Shown here piece after piece: positions 18,529 through 39,561 of a DNA stretch of 64,000 nucleotides. Positions within the stretch are counted from its first letter, which is position 1; each line of letters begins with the position of its first letter. Where the stretch lies: positions 43,171-107,170 of the forward strand of contig JAFTXX010000003.1 in assembly GCA_017461475.1 (NCBI GenBank), given 5' to 3'. Below the pieces are notes generated by a model. The model saw only the letters and a list, made by a program, of their open reading frames with translations, did not search any database and was not told where the DNA came from. The stretch comes from Clostridia bacterium. Its GTDB lineage: Bacteria > Bacillota > Clostridia > Oscillospirales > CAG-272. The position numbers and the translations under genes are program-made.

Positions 18529-18556
18529 GGGGTACCATCCGTAAGGATGGTACCCC
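18529..18556 (+). terminator. Strong hairpin after the 666-aa gene
   Basis: ggggtaccatcc-gtaa-ggatggtacccc. The following T-run is weak. Confidence 0.5.
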
Positions 18557-18663
18557 GGTTATATTCGCCTGCGGCGAGTGATATTGCTTTGCAGTGATAT
18601 ACGGCTTTGCCGTGTGGTATTCGGTTACGCCGAGTTTTTAGGCGAATATCACTTACAAACGAT

Positions 18664-27190: not shown

Positions 27191-27204
27191 ACTAAATGAA
27201 CTTA

Positions 27205-27415
27205 ATATTCACACAGAGTGTCGGGTAAGCCGCAAAGGCTCGCTCGGTGAAAAGGGAACGTGGTGCGAATCCACGACGATACCAGTCGCTGTATACATCC
27301 GAATGTTTTTGTGCTCGTCGGCGAAAGCCGGTCATTGGGAAACTGAGAAGGCAGAGTATGAAAACGCGGGGCAATGCGCCCTATAGGATGTGAGTCAAAA
27401 GACCTGCTCTGATGT
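27205..27415 (+). promoter_or_regulatory. Cobalamin (B12) riboswitch aptamer
   Basis: Core ggtgaaaagggaacgtggtgcgaatccacg...cagtcgctgta, then gccggtcattgggaaactgagaaggc, and a B12-box-like gagtcaaaagacctgct. The 5' cagag and 3' ctctg can close P1. Confidence 0.8.
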
Positions 27416-27525
27416 TGCTCCGTCCGTGTGTTTTACATAGGAGCAATAGTTTTGTTTGGCACTATCATGGCTTTTGATAGGCTTTGTTGCGTTGCCTTGC
27501 AAAATGTGTAAGACACAGAAAAACT

Positions 27526-27568
27526 CTGCTGTGGTAATTTTTAAAAATTACCGCAGCTTTTTTGTTTG
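27526..27568 (+). terminator. Intrinsic terminator (riboswitch expression platform)
   Basis: gctgtggtaattttt / aaaaattaccgcagc stem (one G-U pair) followed by ttttttg, 50 nt before the ATG at 27619. Confidence 0.75.
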
Positions 27569-27618
27569 TCTTTTGTGACTGTTTTGGTTCAAATTCAATT
27601 TTTCAAAGGAGAATTACA

Positions 27619-30600
27619 ATGAAACTCAAAAAAATTGTATCGTTACTACTGAGTATGGTAATGATGCTAAGTATGTTGCCGATTACTATTGGTGCAGCAG
27701 AATTACCGATTAACGGTAACAAATTGGACATTGCCGACCAACAAGTCGGCCCATTCACCTTGCAGTATCTAGAAGTATATTTGCAAGAGTCTTATTTACC
27801 TGTATCTATCGTCAGCGCCGAGCAAAACGGCACTACGATAGACATTGCTCTGTCACCGGATACCGACCCGTCGGCAATGCTGCAGGCAGGCTTTGGCGGC
27901 ACAGGTATGGCCACTTTGTCTCATAGTAACAATAAATGTACTTTGTCTGACGGAAACGGAACCATGACTTGTTCGGTTACCGCATTTCAAGGACGGCCGG
28001 TTGCCGGTGCAAGCTTTACCATTAACTTTAGTCTGGCAACACCGGCAGGACCTGCCGTAAAGTTTACCTCAAACCTTTCCGAAGCAGAAGCGGTATATGT
28101 ACAGGGCAAACCCGCAACGCCCATAACGGTTTCTGCAGAGTACGTTGGCGGTGAAACCGAAGAAAACGTAACTTATCAGTGGTACAAAAACTCCGAAAAG
28201 AGTAACGTAGGCGGAATAGCAATAGACGGTGCAACTTCGAACAGATACACTCCTGCAACCGATGAAATCGGCATTGCCTATTACTATGTAACAGCCTCGT
28301 GCGAGGGCTTGAGCGCAACAAGTAAAATTGCGACAGTTACCGTAGAAGCCCCCGAAGTCAAATTTACATCCAATCTTAATGAAACCGAAATTAAGTGCAC
28401 TCAGGGCAAAGATGTTCCTGCTCTTACAGTAGCCGCAGAGTACACAGGTGTAACCGATAACGCCGTAACGTATCAGTGGTATTCAAATACAACCAAGAGT
28501 ACAGAGGGCGGCACTCTTATCGAAAATGCAACAGATGCAAGCTATACTCCCGCTTCCGATAATGTAGGAACTACATATTATTACGTTGTAGCTACTTGCG
28601 AAGAAAAGAATAGCGCAAGTAAAATTGCAACTGTTACCATAGAGGAGCCGATAGTAAAGATTACAAGCGACCTTGATGAAGAGGAAAAGTTCTGCATTTT
28701 CGGCAAGAGTGCTCCGAATCTTGCAATATCGGCGGAGTATACCGGAGTTACAGAAGAAGTCATTACATATCAGTGGTATTCAAATACAACCAAGAGCACC
28801 GAGGACGGTACGCCTATTGATAATGCAATCGAGGCAAGCTATACTCCTAAAACCGACGCATTGGGTACAACCTATTACTATGCGGTTGCATCTTGCGAAG
28901 GGAAGTCAGCCGTAAGTGCCATCGCTACGGTTACGGTAGAAGCAGACCTTTCACCCGAAAGCGGCTTGTGGCTTGGCATTGAGACATCCAATGGCAGTGT
29001 AAACTTTGTAAAATTCACCGATGCAAACGGCGAAAAAATCGATGGGCTCTATTCCGAACTTGACGGTACAAAAATAACAGTTACTTTGCCGCGAAGCTAT
29101 GGCGCAAACGAAAAAGTCACCGCCGACTTTAATTTGACACAGACTGCGACAAATGATGGAAAATTACCGTTCATTTCAGGCAGTAATGCATTTAATCAGG
29201 GCGTAGGAAGCACTACGGCATACACAGTAGCTCTTGCAAGCGGAAGAGCAACAAAGACGCTGTATCTTTATAATTCCAAGCCCCGCGCAACGAATAACAA
29301 TCCTGCTGTTTACATTATAAGCTATGCAATAGCCAATGAAATTCCCGCACTGGCTGACGGGCAGAATACAGAAGGAACTGCTGAGATCGTTGCAGGCAAT
29401 GCATACACGCTTGACCTTGCACCTGTTTTTACGGATGCTGACGGAGATGCTCTCACTTACAGCGTCAAGATAAACGGTGAAGCGGCAGTAGCGGCAGATG
29501 TAAATTACAGTTTTGCTCCTACACTCGGCGGAACATATACGCTTGAATTTTTTGCAAACGACTTCATGTCCGCTTCCGAGCAGTCGTATACGGTTACACT
29601 TGATGTAATAAATTCTACCGTAACATACGATATGTCCGTTTTGCTTCCGAGTGATATAGCTCCCGCATTTTATATCACAAACGGTTATGATAGCGGCACT
29701 GATGTTCTCGGTGACACACTTGTATTTGTGTCAGGCGAGACGGCAGACGGATATATTCCTTACACCGTTTCTGTCCCCGAGAATATTTCCGAAATTTCTG
29801 TAAGAGATGCCGCATACGGCGGCATGGCAATACCTGCTGCAAGTGAAAGCACCGTAACGCTTCAAAAGGTAGAAACGGAAATCATAGACTTTAGCGATAA
29901 AGAAATTTCGGGTACTGTCAGCGTTTCTTACGGCGAGAAAAAAGCCGTAGGTGTTGACGGCAAATTCCTGCTTGTACCGCAAAAGGAATATAAGTTTACG
30001 GCATCTCCCGAAAACACCTCAATATATAGTGCAAAAACAGAAACACTCACTTTAACCGAAGAAATCACCGCTGTAACCGTTAAAGTACCGTATAAAAACC
30101 CTAAAACGATCATTACTACCACGGGGGCAACCGCAAAAATGTTCAAGTATGCGGGTAACTATCATGTGCATACCGTATATGAACCTCTTGCAACCGTGGA
30201 AAACGGAAACGGCACCTCCACGCATTATTTCAGCGTAAGCGGAGATATCAGCTACCGTGTTTCAATGGAAGGCAAAATCACGAAGGCTGGATATCTCAAA
30301 ACTGGCAATTCTGTAACAGTGCTTCACAGTGAAGCGGACAAGCTCCCCACCGACAGAGTTGACTATACCACCGTAGGCACAAATGCCGCCGAGGTCGGTG
30401 ATGACAGCGTCCTTCTGGGTATCAATCAGCAAAACCATCTTTCTTTGTTGCTTGGTGCAACAAAAACACTCAAAGCATACAGAACATGGCAGATTATCGA
30501 CCTAAGTTACAATAACCACATTATTGAACCCGATTTCAGTTTTAATATAATTTCGGGTGAAGACGTTGTCAGCCTTGCGCCTTATGAGAATCAGCCCACA

Positions 30601-33093
30601 ACCAACGGCAGCGGAAACTGGCGAAAGCTTACTGCTATCGGAGAGGGTACTGCGGTTGTCGAGGTCACCTACGATGCTATCGACATCAGCGGCGGTTCGT
30701 ATAACGGCTTTTACGGTGCGGCAGATCCTGCAAGAACAGGACTTTTTATAGTTACCGTTGGTGAAAATGTTCCTGACGTTGATTTTGGCATAGACTGCAA
30801 AACCGGTGCCGACAGTATGGTTTATACTCCCTCGAATGCAAAGCCTTGGGACGCGGAGTTTGATACGCTCTACTTCCTTGGCGAAAGCGGAGAAATCAAG
30901 CTTTCCCCCACATTTGCAGATGGTAATATAACCGAGGTTGCAGTATCGGGCGATAAGGGTGAAAGCTATACCGTTCTTGAAGAAACCGACGGAGTTTATA
31001 CCGCACCTATTATATCTGGCAACAATATCATTCGTGTTACCACAGATAAAGGTATAGCATATCAGATAGTTCGAGGCGATAAAGTTGAACTTGCGATTAA
31101 GAACATTACAAATCCCGGTAAGCCCATATCTGCCGGCGATGAGATAAGCCTTACACTTATCGGTGTACACACACCTATACCGAAAATTGCAGGCACCTAC
31201 AATCCCGGATACAAAAACAACATGGACGGCGATGGCGGAGTACATCTCCATTACAGTTTCGGCGACGATACCATTAAAAGTGAGGGCAAGCAATACAACT
31301 TCTCATTGTATGGCACTACTGTAAAGTTTACTGTTCCCGCGGATAGCGAAGAAACCGAATTTACGCTTACAGACGGTTATATCGGTGTGGGCGTAATAGG
31401 AGTTACTACTTTCCCGAATGACGGAGAAAGCCACCGAAATATTCCCGATGCCGGAGGCACTACAAGAGGAAGCACAACTACATTCCACACACGTAGTCTG
31501 CTTCCGGACATTACAGTCAAAGTAGGTATGCTCCCGAGCGGCAATACCGCACCCTTTATCCGTGAAAATGCACCTAAGACCGCCACTTTGAATCTCGGCG
31601 GAACATATGCTCTCAGTATGTCGAAGGTTTTCACAGACCGCGAAAGTGACACTCTCACCTACACCGCGAAAGTCGGTAACGGCGAAGCTTCTTTGGTAGC
31701 GGATGCGTATTATACATTTACTCCCGACTCAGTTGGCACATGTACAATAGAGTTTACAGCAAATGACGGCACAGTGGACAGTGATATACACACTGTAACA
31801 CTTTATGTTAAAGAAAAACAAAGCACTTCCACGTCGTCAATTGAATTTGACATTGATGAAGATGATATTGCCGGCTATGTAAAAGTAAGCTTTGCGGACA
31901 AAGGAAAGCGCGTTGAGGGTGAAGAGAATATAACCTACCCGAAGGCGCTTGGTACAATCATTTCAACAAAACGTGTTCCTTTTGCAGACGGCGACACCGT
32001 TGCAGACGTCACTCTCCGTTTACTTGATGCGTACGGGTTTACATACGAATACACCGGAACAACAAAGGATGGCTTCTACCTTGCTTCAATTGGTGGTTTT
32101 ACACTTAAAGGCATAAGCTATGATTCGTTCGGCGAATTTGATGCAGGTACAGGCTCGGGCTGGATGATTACACTTAATAATGATTTCATTGAGTACGGAG
32201 CGTCCGAGTTTGAAGTAGCAAACGGTGATGTAATTAAATGGCAGTATACCTGTCAGCTTGGTTCAGACATTGGTGATCCATTCTATTCCGACTCATCTTC
32301 TTCCGAAAGCTCAACAAACACCTATACAGTTAAGTTTGAAACAAACGGCGGAAGTGCTGTAAGTAATCAAAAGGTTGACAAAAATGATACCGCCACAGAA
32401 CCCGAAGCACCTACCAAGGACGGCTATACCTTCGGCGGTTGGTACACTGACAAGGAACTGACCAAAGAGTATGATTTTGACACCAAGGTTACAAAGAGCT
32501 TTACACTGTATGCGAAGTGGACGGAAAAAGCTTCGGCAGACGAAAATCATTTCAGTGACATCGGCGAAAACGATTGGTACTACCTCTATGTACAGTATGT
32601 ATACGAAAACGGACTTATGCAGGGCACCGATGACGGTTTTGAGCCAGACGGCAACATGACAAGAGCTATGCTTGTTACCGTGCTGTACAGACTTGACGGC
32701 GCGGAGAACGGCAAAGACGGTTGCAGATTCACGGATGTTGCAGAGGGCGAGTGGTACGCGGACGCTGTTGCATGGGCAAATGAAAACGGCATCGTCGTTG
32801 GCATCAGCGAGACAGAATTTGCACCGAACGACAACATCACTCGCGAGCAGATGGCGGCTGTAATCTATCGCTATGCAAAGTTCAAGGGATATGATGTCAG
32901 CGACAAAGCAGACATTTCTGACTTTGCAGACGCGGATGAGATAAGCGGGTATGCACTCGACGCACTTGCGTGGGCAAATGCAAATGAACTTGTAAAGGGC
33001 ACTACGGACACAACCGTATCGCCTAAAGGCACGGCTACGCGTGCGCATGTAGCGGCCATCCTCATGCGCTTTTGCGAGAACATAGCAAAATAA
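27619..33093 (+). CDS. 1,824-aa SLH-anchored multidomain surface protein: Ig-like YQWY repeats, cadherin-like modules, a DUF4430-like module, a Listeria-Bacteroides-type repeat and 3 SLH
   Basis: AAAGGAGAA RBS and signal peptide MKLKKIVSLLLSMVMMLSMLPITIGAAE. Three tandem ~99-aa repeats. FTDADGDALTYS and FTDRESDTLTYT modules. GSGWMITLNN...NGDVIKWQYTCQLGSDIG. YTVKFETNGG...GYTFGGWYTD. Three canonical SLH repeats at the C-terminus. Confidence 0.9.
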   Translation: MKLKKIVSLLLSMVMMLSMLPITIGAAELPINGNKLDIADQQVGPFTLQYLEVYLQESYLPVSIVSAEQNGTTIDIALSPDTDPSAMLQAGFGGTGMATLSHSNNKCTLSDGNGTMTCSVTAFQGRPVAGASFTINFSLATPAGPAVKFTSNLSEAEAVYVQGKPATPITVSAEYVGGETEENVTYQWYKNSEKSNVGGIAIDGATSNRYTPATDEIGIAYYYVTASCEGLSATSKIATVTVEAPEVKFTSNLNETEIKCTQGKDVPALTVAAEYTGVTDNAVTYQWYSNTTKSTEGGTLIENATDASYTPASDNVGTTYYYVVATCEEKNSASKIATVTIEEPIVKITSDLDEEEKFCIFGKSAPNLAISAEYTGVTEEVITYQWYSNTTKSTEDGTPIDNAIEASYTPKTDALGTTYYYAVASCEGKSAVSAIATVTVEADLSPESGLWLGIETSNGSVNFVKFTDANGEKIDGLYSELDGTKITVTLPRSYGANEKVTADFNLTQTATNDGKLPFISGSNAFNQGVGSTTAYTVALASGRATKTLYLYNSKPRATNNNPAVYIISYAIANEIPALADGQNTEGTAEIVAGNAYTLDLAPVFTDADGDALTYSVKINGEAAVAADVNYSFAPTLGGTYTLEFFANDFMSASEQSYTVTLDVINSTVTYDMSVLLPSDIAPAFYITNGYDSGTDVLGDTLVFVSGETADGYIPYTVSVPENISEISVRDAAYGGMAIPAASESTVTLQKVETEIIDFSDKEISGTVSVSYGEKKAVGVDGKFLLVPQKEYKFTASPENTSIYSAKTETLTLTEEITAVTVKVPYKNPKTIITTTGATAKMFKYAGNYHVHTVYEPLATVENGNGTSTHYFSVSGDISYRVSMEGKITKAGYLKTGNSVTVLHSEADKLPTDRVDYTTVGTNAAEVGDDSVLLGINQQNHLSLLLGATKTLKAYRTWQIIDLSYNNHIIEPDFSFNIISGEDVVSLAPYENQPTTNGSGNWRKLTAIGEGTAVVEVTYDAIDISGGSYNGFYGAADPARTGLFIVTVGENVPDVDFGIDCKTGADSMVYTPSNAKPWDAEFDTLYFLGESGEIKLSPTFADGNITEVAVSGDKGESYTVLEETDGVYTAPIISGNNIIRVTTDKGIAYQIVRGDKVELAIKNITNPGKPISAGDEISLTLIGVHTPIPKIAGTYNPGYKNNMDGDGGVHLHYSFGDDTIKSEGKQYNFSLYGTTVKFTVPADSEETEFTLTDGYIGVGVIGVTTFPNDGESHRNIPDAGGTTRGSTTTFHTRSLLPDITVKVGMLPSGNTAPFIRENAPKTATLNLGGTYALSMSKVFTDRESDTLTYTAKVGNGEASLVADAYYTFTPDSVGTCTIEFTANDGTVDSDIHTVTLYVKEKQSTSTSSIEFDIDEDDIAGYVKVSFADKGKRVEGEENITYPKALGTIISTKRVPFADGDTVADVTLRLLDAYGFTYEYTGTTKDGFYLASIGGFTLKGISYDSFGEFDAGTGSGWMITLNNDFIEYGASEFEVANGDVIKWQYTCQLGSDIGDPFYSDSSSSESSTNTYTVKFETNGGSAVSNQKVDKNDTATEPEAPTKDGYTFGGWYTDKELTKEYDFDTKVTKSFTLYAKWTEKASADENHFSDIGENDWYYLYVQYVYENGLMQGTDDGFEPDGNMTRAMLVTVLYRLDGAENGKDGCRFTDVAEGEWYADAVAWANENGIVVGISETEFAPNDNITREQMAAVIYRYAKFKGYDVSDKADISDFADADEISGYALDALAWANANELVKGTTDTTVSPKGTATRAHVAAILMRFCENIAK
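28051..28944 (+). repeat. Three in-frame tandem repeats of ~298 bp inside the giant gene
   Basis: Units start at 28051, 28351 and 28648. Each encodes P.VK(F/I)TS.L.E.E....GK......(V/I).AEY.G.....VTYQWY.N..KS..GG..I..A..(N/A)(R/S)YTP..D..G..YYY....CE......S.IATVT(V/I)E. Confidence 0.9.
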
Positions 33094-34725: not shown

Positions 34726-35370
34726 ATGAAAAAACATATCAACAAGATCATAGCGGCTGTACTTGTCCTTGCGGTTTTGGTATTTGTATTTTGGTGGGGC
34801 GGCAATGCACCGAGCCTTCGCGGCTTCGGCAATGCCGAGGAGACGACAGCCGATACCGCCGTAACCGACAAGTACAAAACAAATACCGTGCCAGAGGATA
34901 AACCTTCTCCCGTCGAACCCGAGGACGCGGTCATTTCGGACAGGGAACTTACCTGTACGCTTTCGGTGCGGTGCGATACGATTTTGGATAACTTAAACTG
35001 GCTCGACCCCGAAAAGGTAGAGCTTGTTCCCAAAGACGGCGTTATCTACGCTGAAAAAACGGTCACATTTTACGAGGGCGAAAGCGTGTTTAATCTGCTT
35101 GTACGTGAGATGAAGCAAAATAAGATTCACATGGAGTTTGTCAATACCCCCATCTACAATAGCGCTTACATTGAGGGAATCGGCAATCTCTATGAATTTG
35201 ACTGCGGCGAGCTTTCGGGTTGGATGTACAAGGTGAACGACTGGTTCCCGAACTACGGCTGCTCGCGCTATCAGCTTTGCGACGGCGACAAAGTCGAATG
35301 GGTATATACATGCGACCTCGGCGAAGATGTCGGCGGCGGATATTCCTCGGGAGTACAAAAGGATGAATGA
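34726..35370 (+). CDS. Membrane-anchored DUF4430-like protein (transcobalamin beta-domain-like)
   Basis: N-terminal TM IIAAVLVLAVLVFVFWW. C-terminal LSGWMYKVNDWFPNYGCSRYQLCDGDKVEWVYTCDLGEDVG. Confidence 0.75.
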   Translation: MKKHINKIIAAVLVLAVLVFVFWWGGNAPSLRGFGNAEETTADTAVTDKYKTNTVPEDKPSPVEPEDAVISDRELTCTLSVRCDTILDNLNWLDPEKVELVPKDGVIYAEKTVTFYEGESVFNLLVREMKQNKIHMEFVNTPIYNSAYIEGIGNLYEFDCGELSGWMYKVNDWFPNYGCSRYQLCDGDKVEWVYTCDLGEDVGGGYSSGVQKDE

Positions 35371-36250
35371 GTTTAAGACATACCATCCGATTGTTAACTT
35401 TGCTTATTTTGCATTCGTTATCGGATTTTCGATGTTTTATATGCACCCCGTATGCCTTGCCGTCACGCTTGCAAGCGGCTTTGTCTATTCGGTAATGCTC
35501 AAAGGCCCAAAAGCGATAAAAACAAATCTTTTGTATATGCTGCCGACAATGCTTATAACGGCGCTTATGAATCCTGCGTTTAACCACGAAGGCGTGACCA
35601 TCCTCACATATCTGCCGAGCGGCAATCCGCTCACGCTCGAGTCGATATTGTACGGTCTCTCGGCGGCGGTGATGATAGTCAGCGTGATGTGTCACTTTTC
35701 GTGCTACAACGCCGTTATGACAAGCGATAAATTCATCTATTTGTTCGGTAGAGTGATTCCGTCGCTGTCGCTGATACTTTCCATGACGCTTCGCTTTGTG
35801 CCAAAATTTACGTCACAGCTTAAAGTGGTAACAAACGCACAGAAATGCATCGGGCGAGATGTTTCAAACGGCTCGCTCTTGCAGAGAGCGAAAAACGGCA
35901 TTTCCATACTGTCTGTAATGGTTACATGGTCGCTTGAAAATGCGGTAGAGACAGCAGACAGCATGAAGTCGCGCGGCTACGGTATGCGTGGGCGCACCGC
36001 GTTTTCGATTTTTAGATTTGACAAGCGGGACGCGGCGGCGCTTCTTTGCATTTCGTTTTTGGGAGTTTATGTGCTTGTCGGCGGTGTTGCGGGCGGTATG
36101 GATTTCAGATATTTTCCGTCTGTAAAAGCCACAGAACCGACTATATATACTGTCAGCATTTTTGCGGCATATTTTGCGCTGTGCGCATTGCCGATAGCGG
36201 TTGAAGTCTTAGAGGTGAGAAAGTGGAAAGCTATAAGATCCAAAATTTAA
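35363..36250 (+). CDS. ECF transporter transmembrane (T) component, CbiQ/EcfT family
   Basis: ATGAATGA start/stop overlap with the previous gene. About 5-6 TM segments. C-terminal ..VETADSMKSRGYG.. (conserved Arg-Gly coupling-helix-like motif). Confidence 0.8.
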   Translation: MNEFKTYHPIVNFAYFAFVIGFSMFYMHPVCLAVTLASGFVYSVMLKGPKAIKTNLLYMLPTMLITALMNPAFNHEGVTILTYLPSGNPLTLESILYGLSAAVMIVSVMCHFSCYNAVMTSDKFIYLFGRVIPSLSLILSMTLRFVPKFTSQLKVVTNAQKCIGRDVSNGSLLQRAKNGISILSVMVTWSLENAVETADSMKSRGYGMRGRTAFSIFRFDKRDAAALLCISFLGVYVLVGGVAGGMDFRYFPSVKATEPTIYTVSIFAAYFALCALPIAVEVLEVRKWKAIRSKI

Positions 36251-38661
36251 GTTTTACATATCCCAACCGCGCGTGTGCGGCACTCGTTGACATAAACCTT
36301 ACTGTCAATGAGGGTGAATTTGTCACTCTGTGCGGCAAATCGGGTTGCGGAAAAACAACGCTTTTGCGCCTGCTCAAAACTTCGCTTGCGCCGCACGGCA
36401 AGCTTTGTGGCAGTATCGATTTCTGCGGTACATCACTTGCTGACACGGATGCAAGAACACAGGCTTCCAAGATAGGCTTTGTCATGCAGAGCCCCGATAA
36501 CCAAATCGTGACCGATAAGGTGTGGCACGAACTTGCGTTTGGACTTGAAAGCCTCGGATGCCCCACCCCCGAGATACGCACACGCGTGGCTGAGATGGCG
36601 TCATTTTTCGGAATCCAAACATGGTTTCACAAAAGCGTGACCGAACTTTCGGGCGGTCAAAAGCAGCTTTTAAATCTCGCTTCAGTCATGGTTATGCAGC
36701 CGTCAGTGCTTATTTTGGACGAGCCGACAAGCCAACTTGACCCCATAGCCGCCGAAGAGTTTTTGAAAACGCTCGAAAAAATAAATCGCGAACTTGGAAC
36801 AACGGTGATATTGTCTGAGCACCGCTTGGAAGATGCGTTCCCTATATCCGACCGCGTTGTCGTTATAGACAGCGGCAGAATAATTGCGGATGCCGAGCCG
36901 AAGAAGGTCTGCGAGATCTTAAAAACAACAAGGCACGATATGTATGCCGCTTTGCCCGCACCGATACGCATTTACGGCGCTGTTGAGACCGATGCTGCAT
37001 TTCCGCTCACGGTTCGTGAGGGTAGAGGGTGGTTTTTGAAATATGCCGAGACGCATACGCCGAAAACGGACGCAATATTGCCCGAAAACAAGCCGCTTGC
37101 GACCGAGACGGCAGTTGAAATAAATGACGCATGGTTCCGCTATGAAAAAGAACTTCCCGATGTCATAAAAGGTCTCAGCCTAAAGGTGCAAAAAGGGGAA
37201 CTGTTCGCCATCCTCGGCGGCAACGGCACGGGAAAAACCACTGCGCTTTCACTAATAAGCGGTCTTAACACGCCGTATCGCGGAAATGTGCTCATAAAAG
37301 GTAAGTCTGTCGCAGATATCGCCGACTTGTATAACGGTACTCTCGGCGTGCTTCCTCAAAATCCGCAGTGTTTGTTTACAAAAAAGACCGTGCGCGCAGA
37401 CCTTTTTGAAATGACAAATAACGCAGAGCATATTCAAAACATAGCAGAGATCTGCAAAATAGCAGAACTGCTCGACAGCCACCCATACGACCTTTCAGGT
37501 GGTGAACAGCAGCGCGCGGCACTTGCCAAAGTGCTTTTGCTTTCGCCGAGAATTTTGCTGCTCGACGAGCCGACCAAAGGTATGGATGCGCAGTTCAAGG
37601 CGTGCTTTGCGGATATTCTGCAGGATTTAAAGGCAAACGGCGTTACTGTCATAATGGTGTCGCACGATATTGAATTTTGTGCCGAGCATGCCGATAGATG
37701 CGCGATGTTTTTTGACGGCAATATTGCATCAGTAGGCACACCGCGTGAGTTCTTCGCAGGCAAAAACTTTTATACCACCTCTGCCAATCGAATCGTGCGC
37801 GAAAAACTGCCACGCGCCGTGACCGCCGAGGATGTGATACTCGCTCTCGGCGGCAAAGTTGAAAAAAGAGAGCGTGTCCCAAGGCGCATAATTCCGCATG
37901 AAAAAAAAGAGCAACCCCAAAAAACGTTCAAAGAGAATATCCAACAACCGCAAAACAACCGCCGCTTAACGGGGCGCACCCTCGCAGCAATGCTTTTGAT
38001 ACTGCTCGTAATACCGCTCACAATTTTTGTCGGCATTGTCTATCTCGGCGACAGAAAGTATTATTTCATAAGCCTGCTCATCATCCTTGAAACCATGATA
38101 CCGTTTTTCATGGTGTTTGAGGGCAGAAAACCCAAGGCACGCGAACTCGTCGTGATAAGCGTGCTGTGCGCTATAGGCGTAGCAGGCAGAGCCGCGTTTT
38201 TTATGTTGCCGCAGTTCAAACCCGTAACGGCGCTTGTCATTATAGCGGGTGTATGTTTCGGCGGAGAAACAGGATTCCTCGTCGGTGCGGTAACGGGCTT
38301 TGTCTCAAACTTCTTTTTCGGACAAGGTCCGTGGACTCCGTGGCAGATGTTCGCTTTCGGAATTATCGGCTTTATAGCGGGAGTGCTGTTCCGCAAAGGT
38401 ATCTTGCGCAAGACAAAAATATCGCTCTGTATCTTCGGATTTATTGCAACGCTCATAATTTACGGCGGAATAATGAATACCGCATCCGTGCTTATTTGGC
38501 AGGCAACACCCAAAGCCCAAATGTTCCTCTCAGCAAGCACTGTGGGACTGCCGTTCGACCTTATCCACGCAGCATCCACCGCCTTATTCCTATGGCTCGC
38601 CGCAGAGCCCATGATCGATAAGCTCGAAAGAATAAAAGCCAAGTACGGTTTGATAGAATAA
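36223..38661 (+). CDS. Fusion protein: two ECF-type ABC ATPase domains + a C-terminal multi-TM S-component-like domain
   Basis: GTG start overlapping the T gene. Domain 1: GKSGCGKTT, LSGGQKQLLNLA, ILDEPTSQLD. Domain 2: GGNGTGKTT, LSGGEQQRAALA, LLLDEPTKGMD. From ~nt 37930 there are six hydrophobic segments (..GQGPWTPWQMFAFGIIGF..). Confidence 0.85.
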   Translation: MESYKIQNLSFTYPNRACAALVDINLTVNEGEFVTLCGKSGCGKTTLLRLLKTSLAPHGKLCGSIDFCGTSLADTDARTQASKIGFVMQSPDNQIVTDKVWHELAFGLESLGCPTPEIRTRVAEMASFFGIQTWFHKSVTELSGGQKQLLNLASVMVMQPSVLILDEPTSQLDPIAAEEFLKTLEKINRELGTTVILSEHRLEDAFPISDRVVVIDSGRIIADAEPKKVCEILKTTRHDMYAALPAPIRIYGAVETDAAFPLTVREGRGWFLKYAETHTPKTDAILPENKPLATETAVEINDAWFRYEKELPDVIKGLSLKVQKGELFAILGGNGTGKTTALSLISGLNTPYRGNVLIKGKSVADIADLYNGTLGVLPQNPQCLFTKKTVRADLFEMTNNAEHIQNIAEICKIAELLDSHPYDLSGGEQQRAALAKVLLLSPRILLLDEPTKGMDAQFKACFADILQDLKANGVTVIMVSHDIEFCAEHADRCAMFFDGNIASVGTPREFFAGKNFYTTSANRIVREKLPRAVTAEDVILALGGKVEKRERVPRRIIPHEKKEQPQKTFKENIQQPQNNRRLTGRTLAAMLLILLVIPLTIFVGIVYLGDRKYYFISLLIILETMIPFFMVFEGRKPKARELVVISVLCAIGVAGRAAFFMLPQFKPVTALVIIAGVCFGGETGFLVGAVTGFVSNFFFGQGPWTPWQMFAFGIIGFIAGVLFRKGILRKTKISLCIFGFIATLIIYGGIMNTASVLIWQATPKAQMFLSASTVGLPFDLIHAASTALFLWLAAEPMIDKLERIKAKYGLIE

Positions 38662-39288
38662 GGCAGAGAATGAATATCAATTTATTTCTGCATTGCGATT
38701 TTTAAACTCAGTATTTACTGAATATGCTTCATGAAGAGCGTTTTAATGCAACATGGAAGGATATATGTCGCGTGATGTCACTTCCAGGTGTTATTATATG
38801 ACGTCAGCGATTTCATCAAGGGAAAACGGATTAAATGCACTGAGATAGCGGTATCGATTACCAGCATATGTATATGATCTTTACATGCTTTCTACTTGCT
38901 TGTATTCGCCATTATTCCTATGTCCTTCTTTATCTTCCCATATTAGAGCTTTTTCGTACGAGTGTGAATATAACAAAAGGTATGTGGTTTCGCAGGATAA
39001 AAAGATTTTACAAGATTTGCTGAATGCATATCGCAATACTTAATCCTTCTGTTTAATATTAAAGTTTGAATATCGACTCCATTTATATATTAGAAAAAGT
39101 GGTAACGACGTACTCTATTTCTTTTGAAGTTAGGTGCTTAGGAAATTGAACATGAAAACTCCGCTTCAATTTGAAACGGAGTTCTTTTGTGCATTGAAAA
39201 ATAAAATGGTTTCCCACCTTAGACTCAGATTGTTATGGGGTTCTAAAGTGGGAAATCTTCAAAAATTAGAAAATTTTTCATTTACCTA

Positions 39289-39317
39289 TTGACAAGGTAG
39301 GCAATGTGTGTTATGCT
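39289..39317 (+). promoter_or_regulatory. Sigma-A-type promoter (extended -10) for the sulfur-amino-acid operon
   Basis: TTGACA (39289-94), 17 nt spacer, TATAAT-like TATGCT (39312-17) preceded by TGt. Confidence 0.6.
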
Positions 39318-39521: not shown

Positions 39522-39561
39522 ATCGGGAGAACTTTATCGGAGTCTCCCGATTTATTATTTT
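39522..39561 (+). terminator. Intrinsic terminator between the mini-ORF and metY (candidate attenuator)
   Basis: atcgggaga (39522-30) pairs with tctcccgat (39543-51), followed by ttattatttt. Confidence 0.7.

Follow-up and report, generated by a model that had tools for sequence, protein, structure and literature searches.

The window, a stretch of 64,000 nucleotides from a Clostridia bacterium contig, contains an operon that leads from a cobalamin riboswitch through genes for surface proteins to the genes of an ECF transporter (Table 1). The riboswitch at its head matches RF00174 over the full model (1-189) and, with 59.8 bits, clearly exceeds the gathering score (31.5). The operon that carries the fusion gene described below encodes DUF4430 and toroid surface proteins. 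In the giant surface protein, Pfam recognizes SLH (116.3 bits) and, at residues 1477-1563, DUF4430 (43.7 bits), together with Big_9 and Flg_new. SLH is also found in the toroid protein (113.7 bits), where the Prenyltrans match, at 25.3 bits, lies slightly under the cut-off of 26.5. The smaller DUF4430 protein matches PF14478 with 61 bits (cut-off 23.8) and has a hydrophobic anchor at the N terminus of its translation. A phmmer search of the PDB with this 214-aa protein gave no match, and its likeness to transcobalamin therefore rests on Pfam and the literature.

Downstream of these genes is the T component, the likely analog of CbrV. It scores 29.1 bits with PF02361 (CbiQ; cut-off 25) and stays far below the cut-off of TIGR02454 (20.9 against 111.8 bits). 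By phmmer it aligns with EcfT of Lactobacillus delbrueckii (5d3m_D, a chain that is also present in 6FNP) at an E-value of 8.5e-14, and the alignment takes in both coupling helices. Of the two coupling-helix motifs, the second, SRGY, is retained and the first is altered, with IGR in place of SRG. In a simple scan, position 38661 was not followed directly by an intrinsic terminator; the nearest one lies at 39536, in the next leader.

Table 1. Features of the operon and domains of the fusion protein, in window coordinates
Feature	Coordinates	Strand	Basis or remarks
Cobalamin riboswitch aptamer	27201..27425	+	Operon head; Rfam RF00174
Giant surface protein anchored to the wall (listed with 1843 aa)	27562..33093	+	Ig-like repeats, DUF4430, SLH
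Secreted SLH-anchored alpha/alpha-toroid protein, 519 aa	33157..34716	+	Pfam
Membrane-anchored DUF4430 protein, 214 aa, with transcobalamin C-terminal-like beta domain	34726..35370	+	PF14478
ECF T component, CbrV-like scaffold, 307 aa	35327..36250	+	Pfam CbiQ
Fusion gene, single frame of 812 aa	36223..38661	+	GTG start; ORF list of the window
ATPase domain 1	36223..36972	+	Residues 1-250; ABC_tran
ATPase domain 2	37108..37854	+	Residues 296-544; ABC_tran 316-451
Flexible cytoplasmic linker	37855..37971	+	Residues 545-583; disorder predicted by AF2
Two-helix membrane hairpin before the S core	37972..38118	+	Residues 584-632; hydropathy and AF2
Six-helix ECF S-component core, CbrT-like	38137..38646	+	Residues 639-808; Pfam, phmmer, Foldseek

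Both ATPases and the substrate-capture subunit in one polypeptide

The start codon of the fusion gene lies five bases downstream of a GAGGTGA ribosome-binding site, and the gene overlaps that of the T component by exactly 28 nt. An earlier note on this DNA, made by reading the sequence, had pointed out both the GTG start and the overlap; both are real, and the overlap recurs in fused and split relatives. The N terminus of the protein, MESYKIQNLSFTY, agrees with the N termini of homologs in an alignment of 55 sequences, in which M1 and E2 are nearly invariant and F11 and Y13 are invariant.

The same note had recognized two full sets of ABC ATPase motifs in this frame, a reading that is borne out by Pfam, NCBIfam and the alignment. 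ABC_tran matches the protein twice (202.8 bits), and the ECF ATPase profile TIGR04520 (ECF_ATPase_1) gives 338.3 bits, which is above its cut-off of 315. Each half keeps Walker A, the Q-loop, the signature, Walker B (with its DE pair) and the H-loop histidine, and these catalytic motifs are invariant or nearly so among the 55 homologs. In the first domain (pLDDT about 88 in the AF2 model), Walker A reads GKSGCGKTT, the signature LSGGQKQ and Walker B ILDEPT, with H200 in the H-loop; in the second (pLDDT about 85-90), the corresponding segments are GGNGTGKTT, LSGGEQQ and LLLDEPT, with an invariant H481.

The ATPases are joined to the membrane part by a segment rich in K, E, P, R and Q, in which AF2 places no secondary structure (residues 542-583) and assigns a pLDDT below 50 to residues 561-583. 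Column conservation in this linker is 0.49, as compared with 0.80-0.87 in the domains, and its length varies from 26 to 47 residues across the 55 homologs, with 26 as the minimum. In 44 of these 55 proteins, an insert of 54-69 aa with two transmembrane helices resides at the linker. Most relatives, at about 860-893 aa, thus have a further hairpin, which the window protein, at 812 aa, lacks.

For the C-terminal domain, the earlier note had proposed about six hydrophobic helices beginning at about nt 37930. Its hydrophobic character stands, but the helices number eight and begin at about nt 37972. The first two (residues 584-608 and 613-632 by hydropathy and AF2) form a hairpin with a conservation of 0.82, in which K612, Y613, Y614, E623, T624, P627 and F628 are invariant. 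Stand-alone S proteins of 236-250 aa also have this hairpin, and the extra helices are therefore part of the S family; on the same ground, the idea that they arose as a by-product of the fusion was rejected. The core that follows matches PF12822 (ECF_trnsprt) at residues 640-787 with 44 bits against 30.7, and the C-terminal region of the fusion matches PF07155 with 41.1 bits against 26.7, so that the comparison with S-component families that the note had suggested gives scores above the gathering thresholds of both profiles. Assignment to RibU or FolT was rejected, the NCBIfam scores being 29.7 bits against 99 for PRK13661 and 25.4 against 60 for TIGR04518. Helix 1 of the core bears an AxxxA motif, A650-IGV-A654, both alanines of which are at least 90% conserved.

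In the full-length AF2 model, the hairpin and helix 1 have a pLDDT of only 45-60, and the membrane part was therefore modeled again by itself for the fold search. The resulting model (pLDDT 88.3, pTM 0.88) is confident in both hairpin and core (pLDDT 81-90). When it was compared with the PDB using Foldseek, the best 16 matches were all solved S components (probability 0.94-1.00, TM-score per target 0.49-0.75). At the level of sequence, phmmer aligns positions 66-235 of the query with positions 10-177 of the 182-residue CbrT chain 6fnp_A (E 7.6e-9), the only PDB sequence below an E-value of 0.001 for the S domain, although identity to CbrT is low. The domain scores, the CbrT alignment and the fold together confirm what the note had proposed, namely EcfA, EcfA' and S in a single polypeptide: the 812-residue protein comprises both ECF ATPase motors and the membrane-embedded substrate-capture subunit.

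Comparisons can be made with several known systems. The resemblance to ECF-CbrT of L. delbrueckii (6FNP) comprises the S core, which is aligned over the whole CbrT chain, the EcfT alignment, the two ABC ATPases and a B12-linked context. CbrT is, however, a free six-helix protein of 182 aa, and the group II EcfAA'T module that it uses also serves seven other S components. The S domain in the window has two additional helices at its N terminus, forms one covalent chain with tandem AA' and has a T gene of its own. The window operon also differs from ECF-CbrT in its riboswitch and surface binders. Because of its eight helices, its fusion to AA' and its dedicated T, the S domain represents a subfamily related to CbrT and is not orthologous to the arrangement found in L. 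delbrueckii.

Closer in organization is CbrUVT in Rodionov's nomenclature (PMC6593275, PMC8123684, PMC6722938), which has the same three functions and the same predicted substrate class. The T, tandem AA' and S genes of split operons among the relatives match CbrV, CbrU and CbrT, respectively; the window has CbrU and CbrT in a single chain. Burroughs et al. (2007, PMC1796856) described transcobalamin-like proteins with toroid and SLBB domains that are encoded in operons with CbiO and CbiQ. Those operons and the L. sakei locus Lsa1836-1840 follow a logic shared with the window, in which a surface toroid and DUF4430/SLBB proteins are placed beside ECF A-A', T and S, but they are split systems, unlike the window fusion. 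The L. sakei locus has moreover been tied to heme and not to B12, and its S component is described with six helices (bioRxiv 10.1101/864751).

The T and AA'-S genes overlap behind one riboswitch, and a separate canonical EcfT (168 bits) is encoded elsewhere in the genome. With its own T gene in the operon, the transporter is a dedicated one of the group I-like kind, as the earlier note had held. Overall, the locus very probably encodes a riboswitch-controlled (group I-type) CbrU-CbrT fusion that works with CbrV to import B12 or related corrinoids. All of its parts belong to known families, and the system as a whole does not represent a new kind.

The tether and the transport cycle

The main question about the mechanism of ECF transporters is whether the subunit that captures the substrate has to part from its motor in every cycle. 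Dissociation and rebinding have been seen at the single-molecule level for ECF-CbrT (PMC12075633). The earlier note reasoned that a covalent fusion would constrain toppling and dissociation. The case for such a constraint is weaker than was claimed: since S is attached through a poorly conserved linker of 26-47 residues and, in most relatives, through an extra membrane hairpin as well, toppling and short-range release would still be possible.

The transport cycle could proceed as follows. Low B12 would open the riboswitch, and the wall- and membrane-anchored binders would capture corrinoid and hand it over to the outward-facing S, which would then topple against the coupling helices of T and free B12 inside. 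ATP binding and hydrolysis at the two fused nucleotide-binding domains would reset the system. Both ends of an S component lie in the cytosol (PMC12075633); with its N terminus on this side, S could be joined to the C terminus of A' with no change in topology. The linker would permit S to topple and perhaps to move a short distance away from T. It would also fix a 1:1 stoichiometry and guard against the loss of S to the second, shared ECF module of the cell or its displacement there.

Alternatively, S could be locked permanently on its module, which would have a fixed composition, as in the power-stroke model for the group I transporter BioMNY, with no expulsion into the bilayer. A covalent link fixes composition by definition, S components of group I are thought to stay near their module (PMC10368641), and alternatives with fixed composition have been discussed for ECF transporters (PMC12075633). 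It is harder to reconcile a permanent lock with a disordered and poorly conserved linker that has at least 26 residues in all 55 homologs, with the free membrane hairpin that most relatives add, or with the behavior of the closest characterized relative, ECF-CbrT, which dissociates and re-associates under turnover (PMC12075633). We therefore regard the lock as possible but somewhat doubtful. The linker and hairpin give tens of angstroms of slack, and a tethered cycle of release and rebinding is thus equally possible.

More speculatively, and on balance improbably, this AA'-S importer of the CbrT type might complete its cycle without S being released into the bilayer any farther than its tether allows, with the strongly conserved hairpin (E623/T624, in the membrane) serving as the docking site at which the membrane-anchored DUF4430 protein hands over B12 to S. 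If this were so, the system would be a binding-protein-assisted ECF importer, contrary to the textbook rule by which ECF transporters do without a binding protein.

Natural fusions occur elsewhere among ECF proteins, in the tandem A-A' ATPases and reportedly also in the EetB-FmnA S-T fusions of a flavin exporter. These examples indicate that covalent joining of subunits is tolerated, but the window fusion ties the mobile S component to the soluble ATPases rather than to T. Together with the split relatives, the natural variation in linker length and the optional hairpin provide material for testing how much freedom the S component needs.

The substrate

B12 had been named as the likely substrate in the earlier note, and the cobalamin riboswitch and the homology to CbrT support this assignment. 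CbrT is a demonstrated S component for cobalamin and cobinamide (Santos et al. 2018, PMC5997447); the structure in PDB 6FNP is apo and hence does not define the residues with which CbrT binds its ligand. The association with B12 extends to related operons. A cobalamin riboswitch also heads the fused operons L005, L006 and L007 and the split operons L012 and L013, and a gene for a DUF4430 protein lies immediately upstream of T in L003, L005-L007, L012 and L013. The toroid gene is found again in L003, L007 and L012, and counterparts of the giant surface protein occur in L003 and L007. A corrinoid adenosyltransferase (CobA/BtuR) is encoded within L003 and beside L007.

Elsewhere in the genome of the window, an 816-aa frame contains a B12-binding_2 protein, which is probably a B12-dependent enzyme. 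Neither CbiD, CobS nor a BtuF-type binding protein was found in this genome, which is 76% complete; owing to that degree of completeness, the absence of B12 synthesis genes is a weak point of the argument.

The transporter could also be built as described and carry something other than cobalamin itself. Heme and other tetrapyrroles are candidates, as are corrinoid precursors, for instance cobyrinate diamide and cobinamide. In the split L. sakei homolog Lsa1836-1840, which is accompanied by beta and alpha proteins that resemble transcobalamin, heme uptake is lower on deletion and higher on over-expression (bioRxiv 10.1101/864751). A review files cbrUVT under 'cobyrinate diamide uptake' (PMC8123684), cobinamide is carried by ECF-CbrT as well (PMC5997447), and no riboswitch is present in L014, a split clade of more distant relatives. 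Set against these observations are the cobalamin riboswitch on the window operon and on related operons, the corrinoid adenosyltransferases in or beside the latter, the finding that, among relatives of known structure, the B12 component CbrT is the best, and the B12-binding_2 protein of the genome. A precursor in particular would call for CobS, the late gene of B12 assembly, which was not found in the 76% of the genome that is present. We consider it quite unlikely that the substrate is one of these other compounds, and B12 or a related corrinoid is preferred.

Distribution and origin of the fused form

The fused architecture is present in at least 7,827 protein clusters. If an S domain that lies within an open frame of 700 aa or more is counted as a fused copy, the architecture occurs in 50 of the 301 species genomes sampled from the order and in about 105 of the 399 sampled from the class, where it is the commoner form of the CbrT-like S family. 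The survey of its frequency that the earlier note had called for thus finds the fusion widespread rather than exceptional. Complete single-contig genomes are among those with the fused frame (for example G242, G187, G320 and G571), and the identical 812-aa protein is encoded on 6 contigs.

In split operons of relatives, the order is riboswitch, toroid, DUF4430, T, AA' and S, as in the fused operons, and the adjacent AA' and S genes overlap by 28-41 nt in different frames. A one-base sequencing or assembly error near nt 37900 could in principle join two such genes, a possibility that the note had raised, but it is effectively excluded by the conservation of the same single frame across thousands of independent assemblies, complete genomes and repeated contigs included, and by the fact that fused forms fall into one clade and have a linker of 26-47 residues for which split forms have no need.

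All 28 fused S domains in the tree (28 of 28) belong to a single clade with an SH-aLRT support of 99. Judging from this phylogeny, the fusion may have arisen once; many independent fusion events were rejected, only 3 changes being needed on the tree.

In the open-access literature, no description or bench study of an A-A'-S fusion was found, an absence that is no proof that none exists. About one in four of the Clostridia species sampled has a CbrT-type S component tied covalently to its ATPases, and the split sisters can serve as controls. The fusion genes carry no label beyond 'ATP-binding cassette domain-containing protein' or 'ECF transporter ATPase', and because of these generic ATPase labels the capacity of gut Clostridia for B12 uptake is probably under-called.

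Architecture and topology of the fusion protein

The fusion protein consists of two complete ATPases followed by an S-like membrane domain, and the earlier note's description of this ORF from its sequence is borne out by motifs, Pfam and NCBIfam. Two ABC_tran domains are recognized by Pfam, the product passes the cut-off of the NCBIfam ECF_ATPase_1 equivalog (338.3 bits; cut-off 315), and both nucleotide-binding domains carry Walker A, the Q-loop, the LSGG signature, the Walker B Asp-Glu and the H-loop His, at positions that are invariant or nearly so across 55 homologs. The GTG start lies 5 bases 3′ of GAGGTGA and agrees with the N-termini of aligned homologs. The overlap with the T gene that the note had described is also present, and it measures exactly 28 nt in all operons examined, both fused (that of the window and the related operons L003 and L005-L007) and split (L012 and L014); such constancy in a coupled junction is unusual. 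Downstream, window positions 38662-39290 are AT-rich (GC 0.38-0.40) and non-coding as far as a promoter-like site at 39289, and a simple scan of this stretch detected no intrinsic terminator directly 3′ of the fusion gene.

Features of the window and of two further loci in the same genome
Feature	Position	Strand	Detail
Gut-1 sRNA match (Rfam)	window 18556-18625	+	53.8 bits; gathering score 50
Cobalamin riboswitch	window 27201-27425		59.8 bits; ahead of five co-directional genes
T gene	window 35327-36250		CbrV-like ECF T component
T/fusion gene overlap	window 36223-36250		28 nt
Fusion gene	window 36223-38661	+	812-residue ORF
Second, canonical EcfT (L001)	contig C27:8732-9403	-	PF02361, 168 bits
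B12-binding_2 domain (L015)	contig C86:23545-23757	-	67 bits; in 816-aa open frame

In the membrane domain, where about six hydrophobic helices had been proposed, hydropathy and two AlphaFold models instead reveal eight. A linker, disordered in the models at residues 545-583 (pLDDT <50 at 561-583), is followed by a hairpin (helices 584-608 and 613-632) and then by a six-helix bundle (residues 639-808). The comparison with S-component families that the note had suggested yields two Pfam matches above their gathering scores: PF12822, the ECF transporter substrate-specific component, at residues 640-787 (44 bits; gathering score 30.7), and PF07155 in the C-terminal part (41.1 bits; 26.7). The AlphaFold model of the membrane domain alone is confident (pLDDT 88.3, pTM 0.88), and its best 16 PDB matches in Foldseek, which include RibU, the S chains of 4HZU and 4HUQ, ThiT, FolT and BioY, are all solved S components (probability 0.94-1.00, TM-score per target 0.49-0.75). 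The AxxxA motif, which has been connected with the docking of S components to their module (PMC11109136), is found in helix 1 of the S core as A650-IGV-A654, with each alanine at least 90% conserved.

The hairpin displays a column conservation (0.82) on a par with that of the catalytic domains and contains seven invariant residues (K612, Y613, Y614, E623, T624, P627 and F628). Positive charges flank it on both sides (RRLTGRT ahead of helix 584-608, EGRKPKARE behind helix 613-632) and fit a predicted in-out-in arrangement, by which helix 1 of the S core would begin on the cytoplasmic side; in the S components known so far, both termini are likewise cytosolic (PMC12075633). Such a start would permit attachment to the C-terminal end of an ATPase in the cytoplasm without any topological rearrangement. 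The same hairpin and core occur in stand-alone S proteins of 236-250 aa, including Acetobacterium and Paenibacillus entries annotated "ECF transporter S component", which rules out the hairpin as a by-product of fusion.

Between the end of A′ and the first membrane helix, the 55 homologs contain a soluble linker of 26-47 residues (median 30) in which K, E, P, R and Q are abundant and conservation is low (0.49). The majority of fused relatives are 860-893 aa long, compared with 812 aa in the window, and the difference is accounted for by a 54-69 residue linker insert bearing two further predicted transmembrane helices, which 44 of the 55 aligned homologs have and which the window's protein, like ten others, lacks. 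Since the insert is itself a hairpin, topology is kept and its loss is topologically neutral; this element seems to be dispensable. Variations on the architecture also occur among the search matches. P0165 (1263 aa) and P0264 (1704 aa), which may represent either still larger fusions or gene calls run together, combine additional ABC_tran stretches with a C-terminal eight-helix S domain identical in kind. A recurrent class of ~440 aa (P0172 and P0176, 442-455 aa) begins with an additional membrane region of several helices, unmatched in Pfam, ahead of the hairpin and S core, and P0201 (463 aa) instead carries a C-terminal extracytoplasmic extension beyond the core.

Substrate and genomic context

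The system is very probably a dedicated B12/corrinoid ECF importer with a fused AA′-S. By sequence, 6FNP chain A (E 7.6e-9, across its residues 10-177 of 182) is the sole PDB chain that the S domain matches at E <0.001; it belongs to ECF-CbrT, a Lactobacillus delbrueckii transporter characterized for vitamin B12 and cobinamide (PMC5997447). The cobalamin riboswitch is found in related operons too, and a CobA/BtuR-type corrinoid adenosyltransferase lies within operon L003 and adjoins L007. The genes upstream of T encode two SLH-anchored products, a giant protein carrying a DUF4430 domain and an alpha/alpha toroid, together with a membrane-anchored DUF4430 protein. In CbiO/CbiQ operons, SLBB and toroid proteins of this transcobalamin-like kind have been predicted to scavenge B12 (Burroughs et al., 2007; PMC1796856). 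Import of a non-B12 tetrapyrrole is improbable alongside these cobalamin-related features, its support including the heme import reported for a homologous L. sakei system, which is split and has transcobalamin-like partners (bioRxiv 10.1101/864751). In the naming of Rodionov and colleagues for the dedicated B12-type system, CbrUVT (PMC6593275, PMC8123684, PMC6722938), the window would encode CbrV and a CbrU-CbrT fusion.

The genome assembly (2.06 Mb, 76% complete) contains a second EcfT that presumably belongs to a shared group II module, which would equip the cell with a pair of ECF motors. It also encodes one protein with a B12-binding_2 domain, in all probability an enzyme of the B12-dependent methionine synthase type that would consume the imported cofactor, whereas neither CbiD nor CobS nor a BtuF-type binding protein was detected in this 76% complete genome. 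Within the limits of that completeness, the organism is consistent with a B12 user that relies on uptake. The Gut-1 sRNA match fits a gut-associated organism.

Possible mechanistic consequences of the tether

Every part required for the ECF cycle appears to be present and conserved, and the tether that holds S is both long and flexible. At the coupling helices, the T protein can be aligned with solved EcfT; there, the second SRGY motif is retained and the first reads IGR. Presumably, a corrinoid caught at the surface would be passed to the outward-facing S, which would topple against the coupling helices of T, and the complex would be reset through ATP binding and hydrolysis. The current model for group II transporters invokes ATP-driven expulsion of S into the bilayer (PMC10368641), and dissociation and rebinding are described for ECF-CbrT under turnover (PMC12075633); in group I systems, S may stay close to the module throughout (PMC10368641). 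The earlier note held that fusion would constrain this mechanism. Stoichiometry and proximity are indeed set by it, but fusion does not by itself forbid local release of S, because the linker offers 26-47 disordered residues and, in most relatives, a spare hairpin. The note's observation stands with a corrected helix count, and its interpretation is partly supported. A likely benefit of fusion would be that this S domain stays on its own module despite the presence of a shared ECF module in the same cell.

All components belong to known families; the operon type was already predicted in 2007 and 2009-2019, and the AA′-S architecture is abundant in databases. We found neither a description nor a bench study of this fusion in the searchable literature, outside of which the 2009 founding paper lies, and the nearest published remark describes subunits of ECF transporters as "sometimes fused into multidomain proteins" (PMC12075633). 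The fusion is commonplace in nature and could serve as a natural experiment on S-component release.

Prevalence and origin of the fusion

A search with the S region against long proteins only (E <= 0.001) recovered at least 7,827 clusters from 8,000 candidates. Among the 120 matches listed, nearly all are ~800-890 aa and combine ABC_tran with ECF_trnsprt, and these are named "ATP-binding cassette domain-containing protein" or "energy-coupling factor transporter ATPase" at source. How often the fusion occurs, a count the note had called for, was surveyed in species-representative genomes. Across the order, the S domain is present in 131 of 301 scored genomes (E <= 1e-10) and fused in 50 (open frame >=800 aa). 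Across the class, it is present in 152 of 399 (E <= 1e-30) and fused in ~105 by our own count, from 108 matches of >=700 aa, with ~40 matches in short frames. Several fused examples come from single-contig genomes. Because the fused architecture is conserved across genomes, a local frameshift error is very unlikely to be the source of the single ORF.

Split relatives display the same gene order. In L012, a cobalamin riboswitch is followed by an SLH/toroid protein, a DUF4430 protein, T (316 aa), tandem AA′ (530 aa) and S (238 aa), with 28-nt overlaps at both the T/AA′ and AA′/S junctions, and T-AA′-S order recurs in the split operons L013 and L014. The fused operons L003 and L005-L007 share the neighbors of L012 and its T/AA′ overlap. 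In a maximum-likelihood tree of 58 S domains, for which rows of both forms were picked from the order survey and all selected rows kept, 28 of 28 fused domains fall in one clade (SH-aLRT 99) together with only two short-frame copies. Three changes suffice to explain the fused and split states, and the tree may be compatible with a single origin. The fusion goes back to a merger of adjacent AA′ and S genes in a pre-existing dedicated system, followed by wide spread, since split operons keep the T-AA′-S order and fused copies share one clade.

L014 is a more distant split operon, from a genome that belongs to the family of the window's own. The ORFs listed just upstream of it lie on the opposite strand, no cobalamin riboswitch was found within the 12 kb examined, and its substrate may differ. 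Some species (G423, G459 and G551) carry two fused copies each, and G101 has one fused and one split copy in different tree clades; such multiple copies may represent paralogous systems with different corrinoid specificities.
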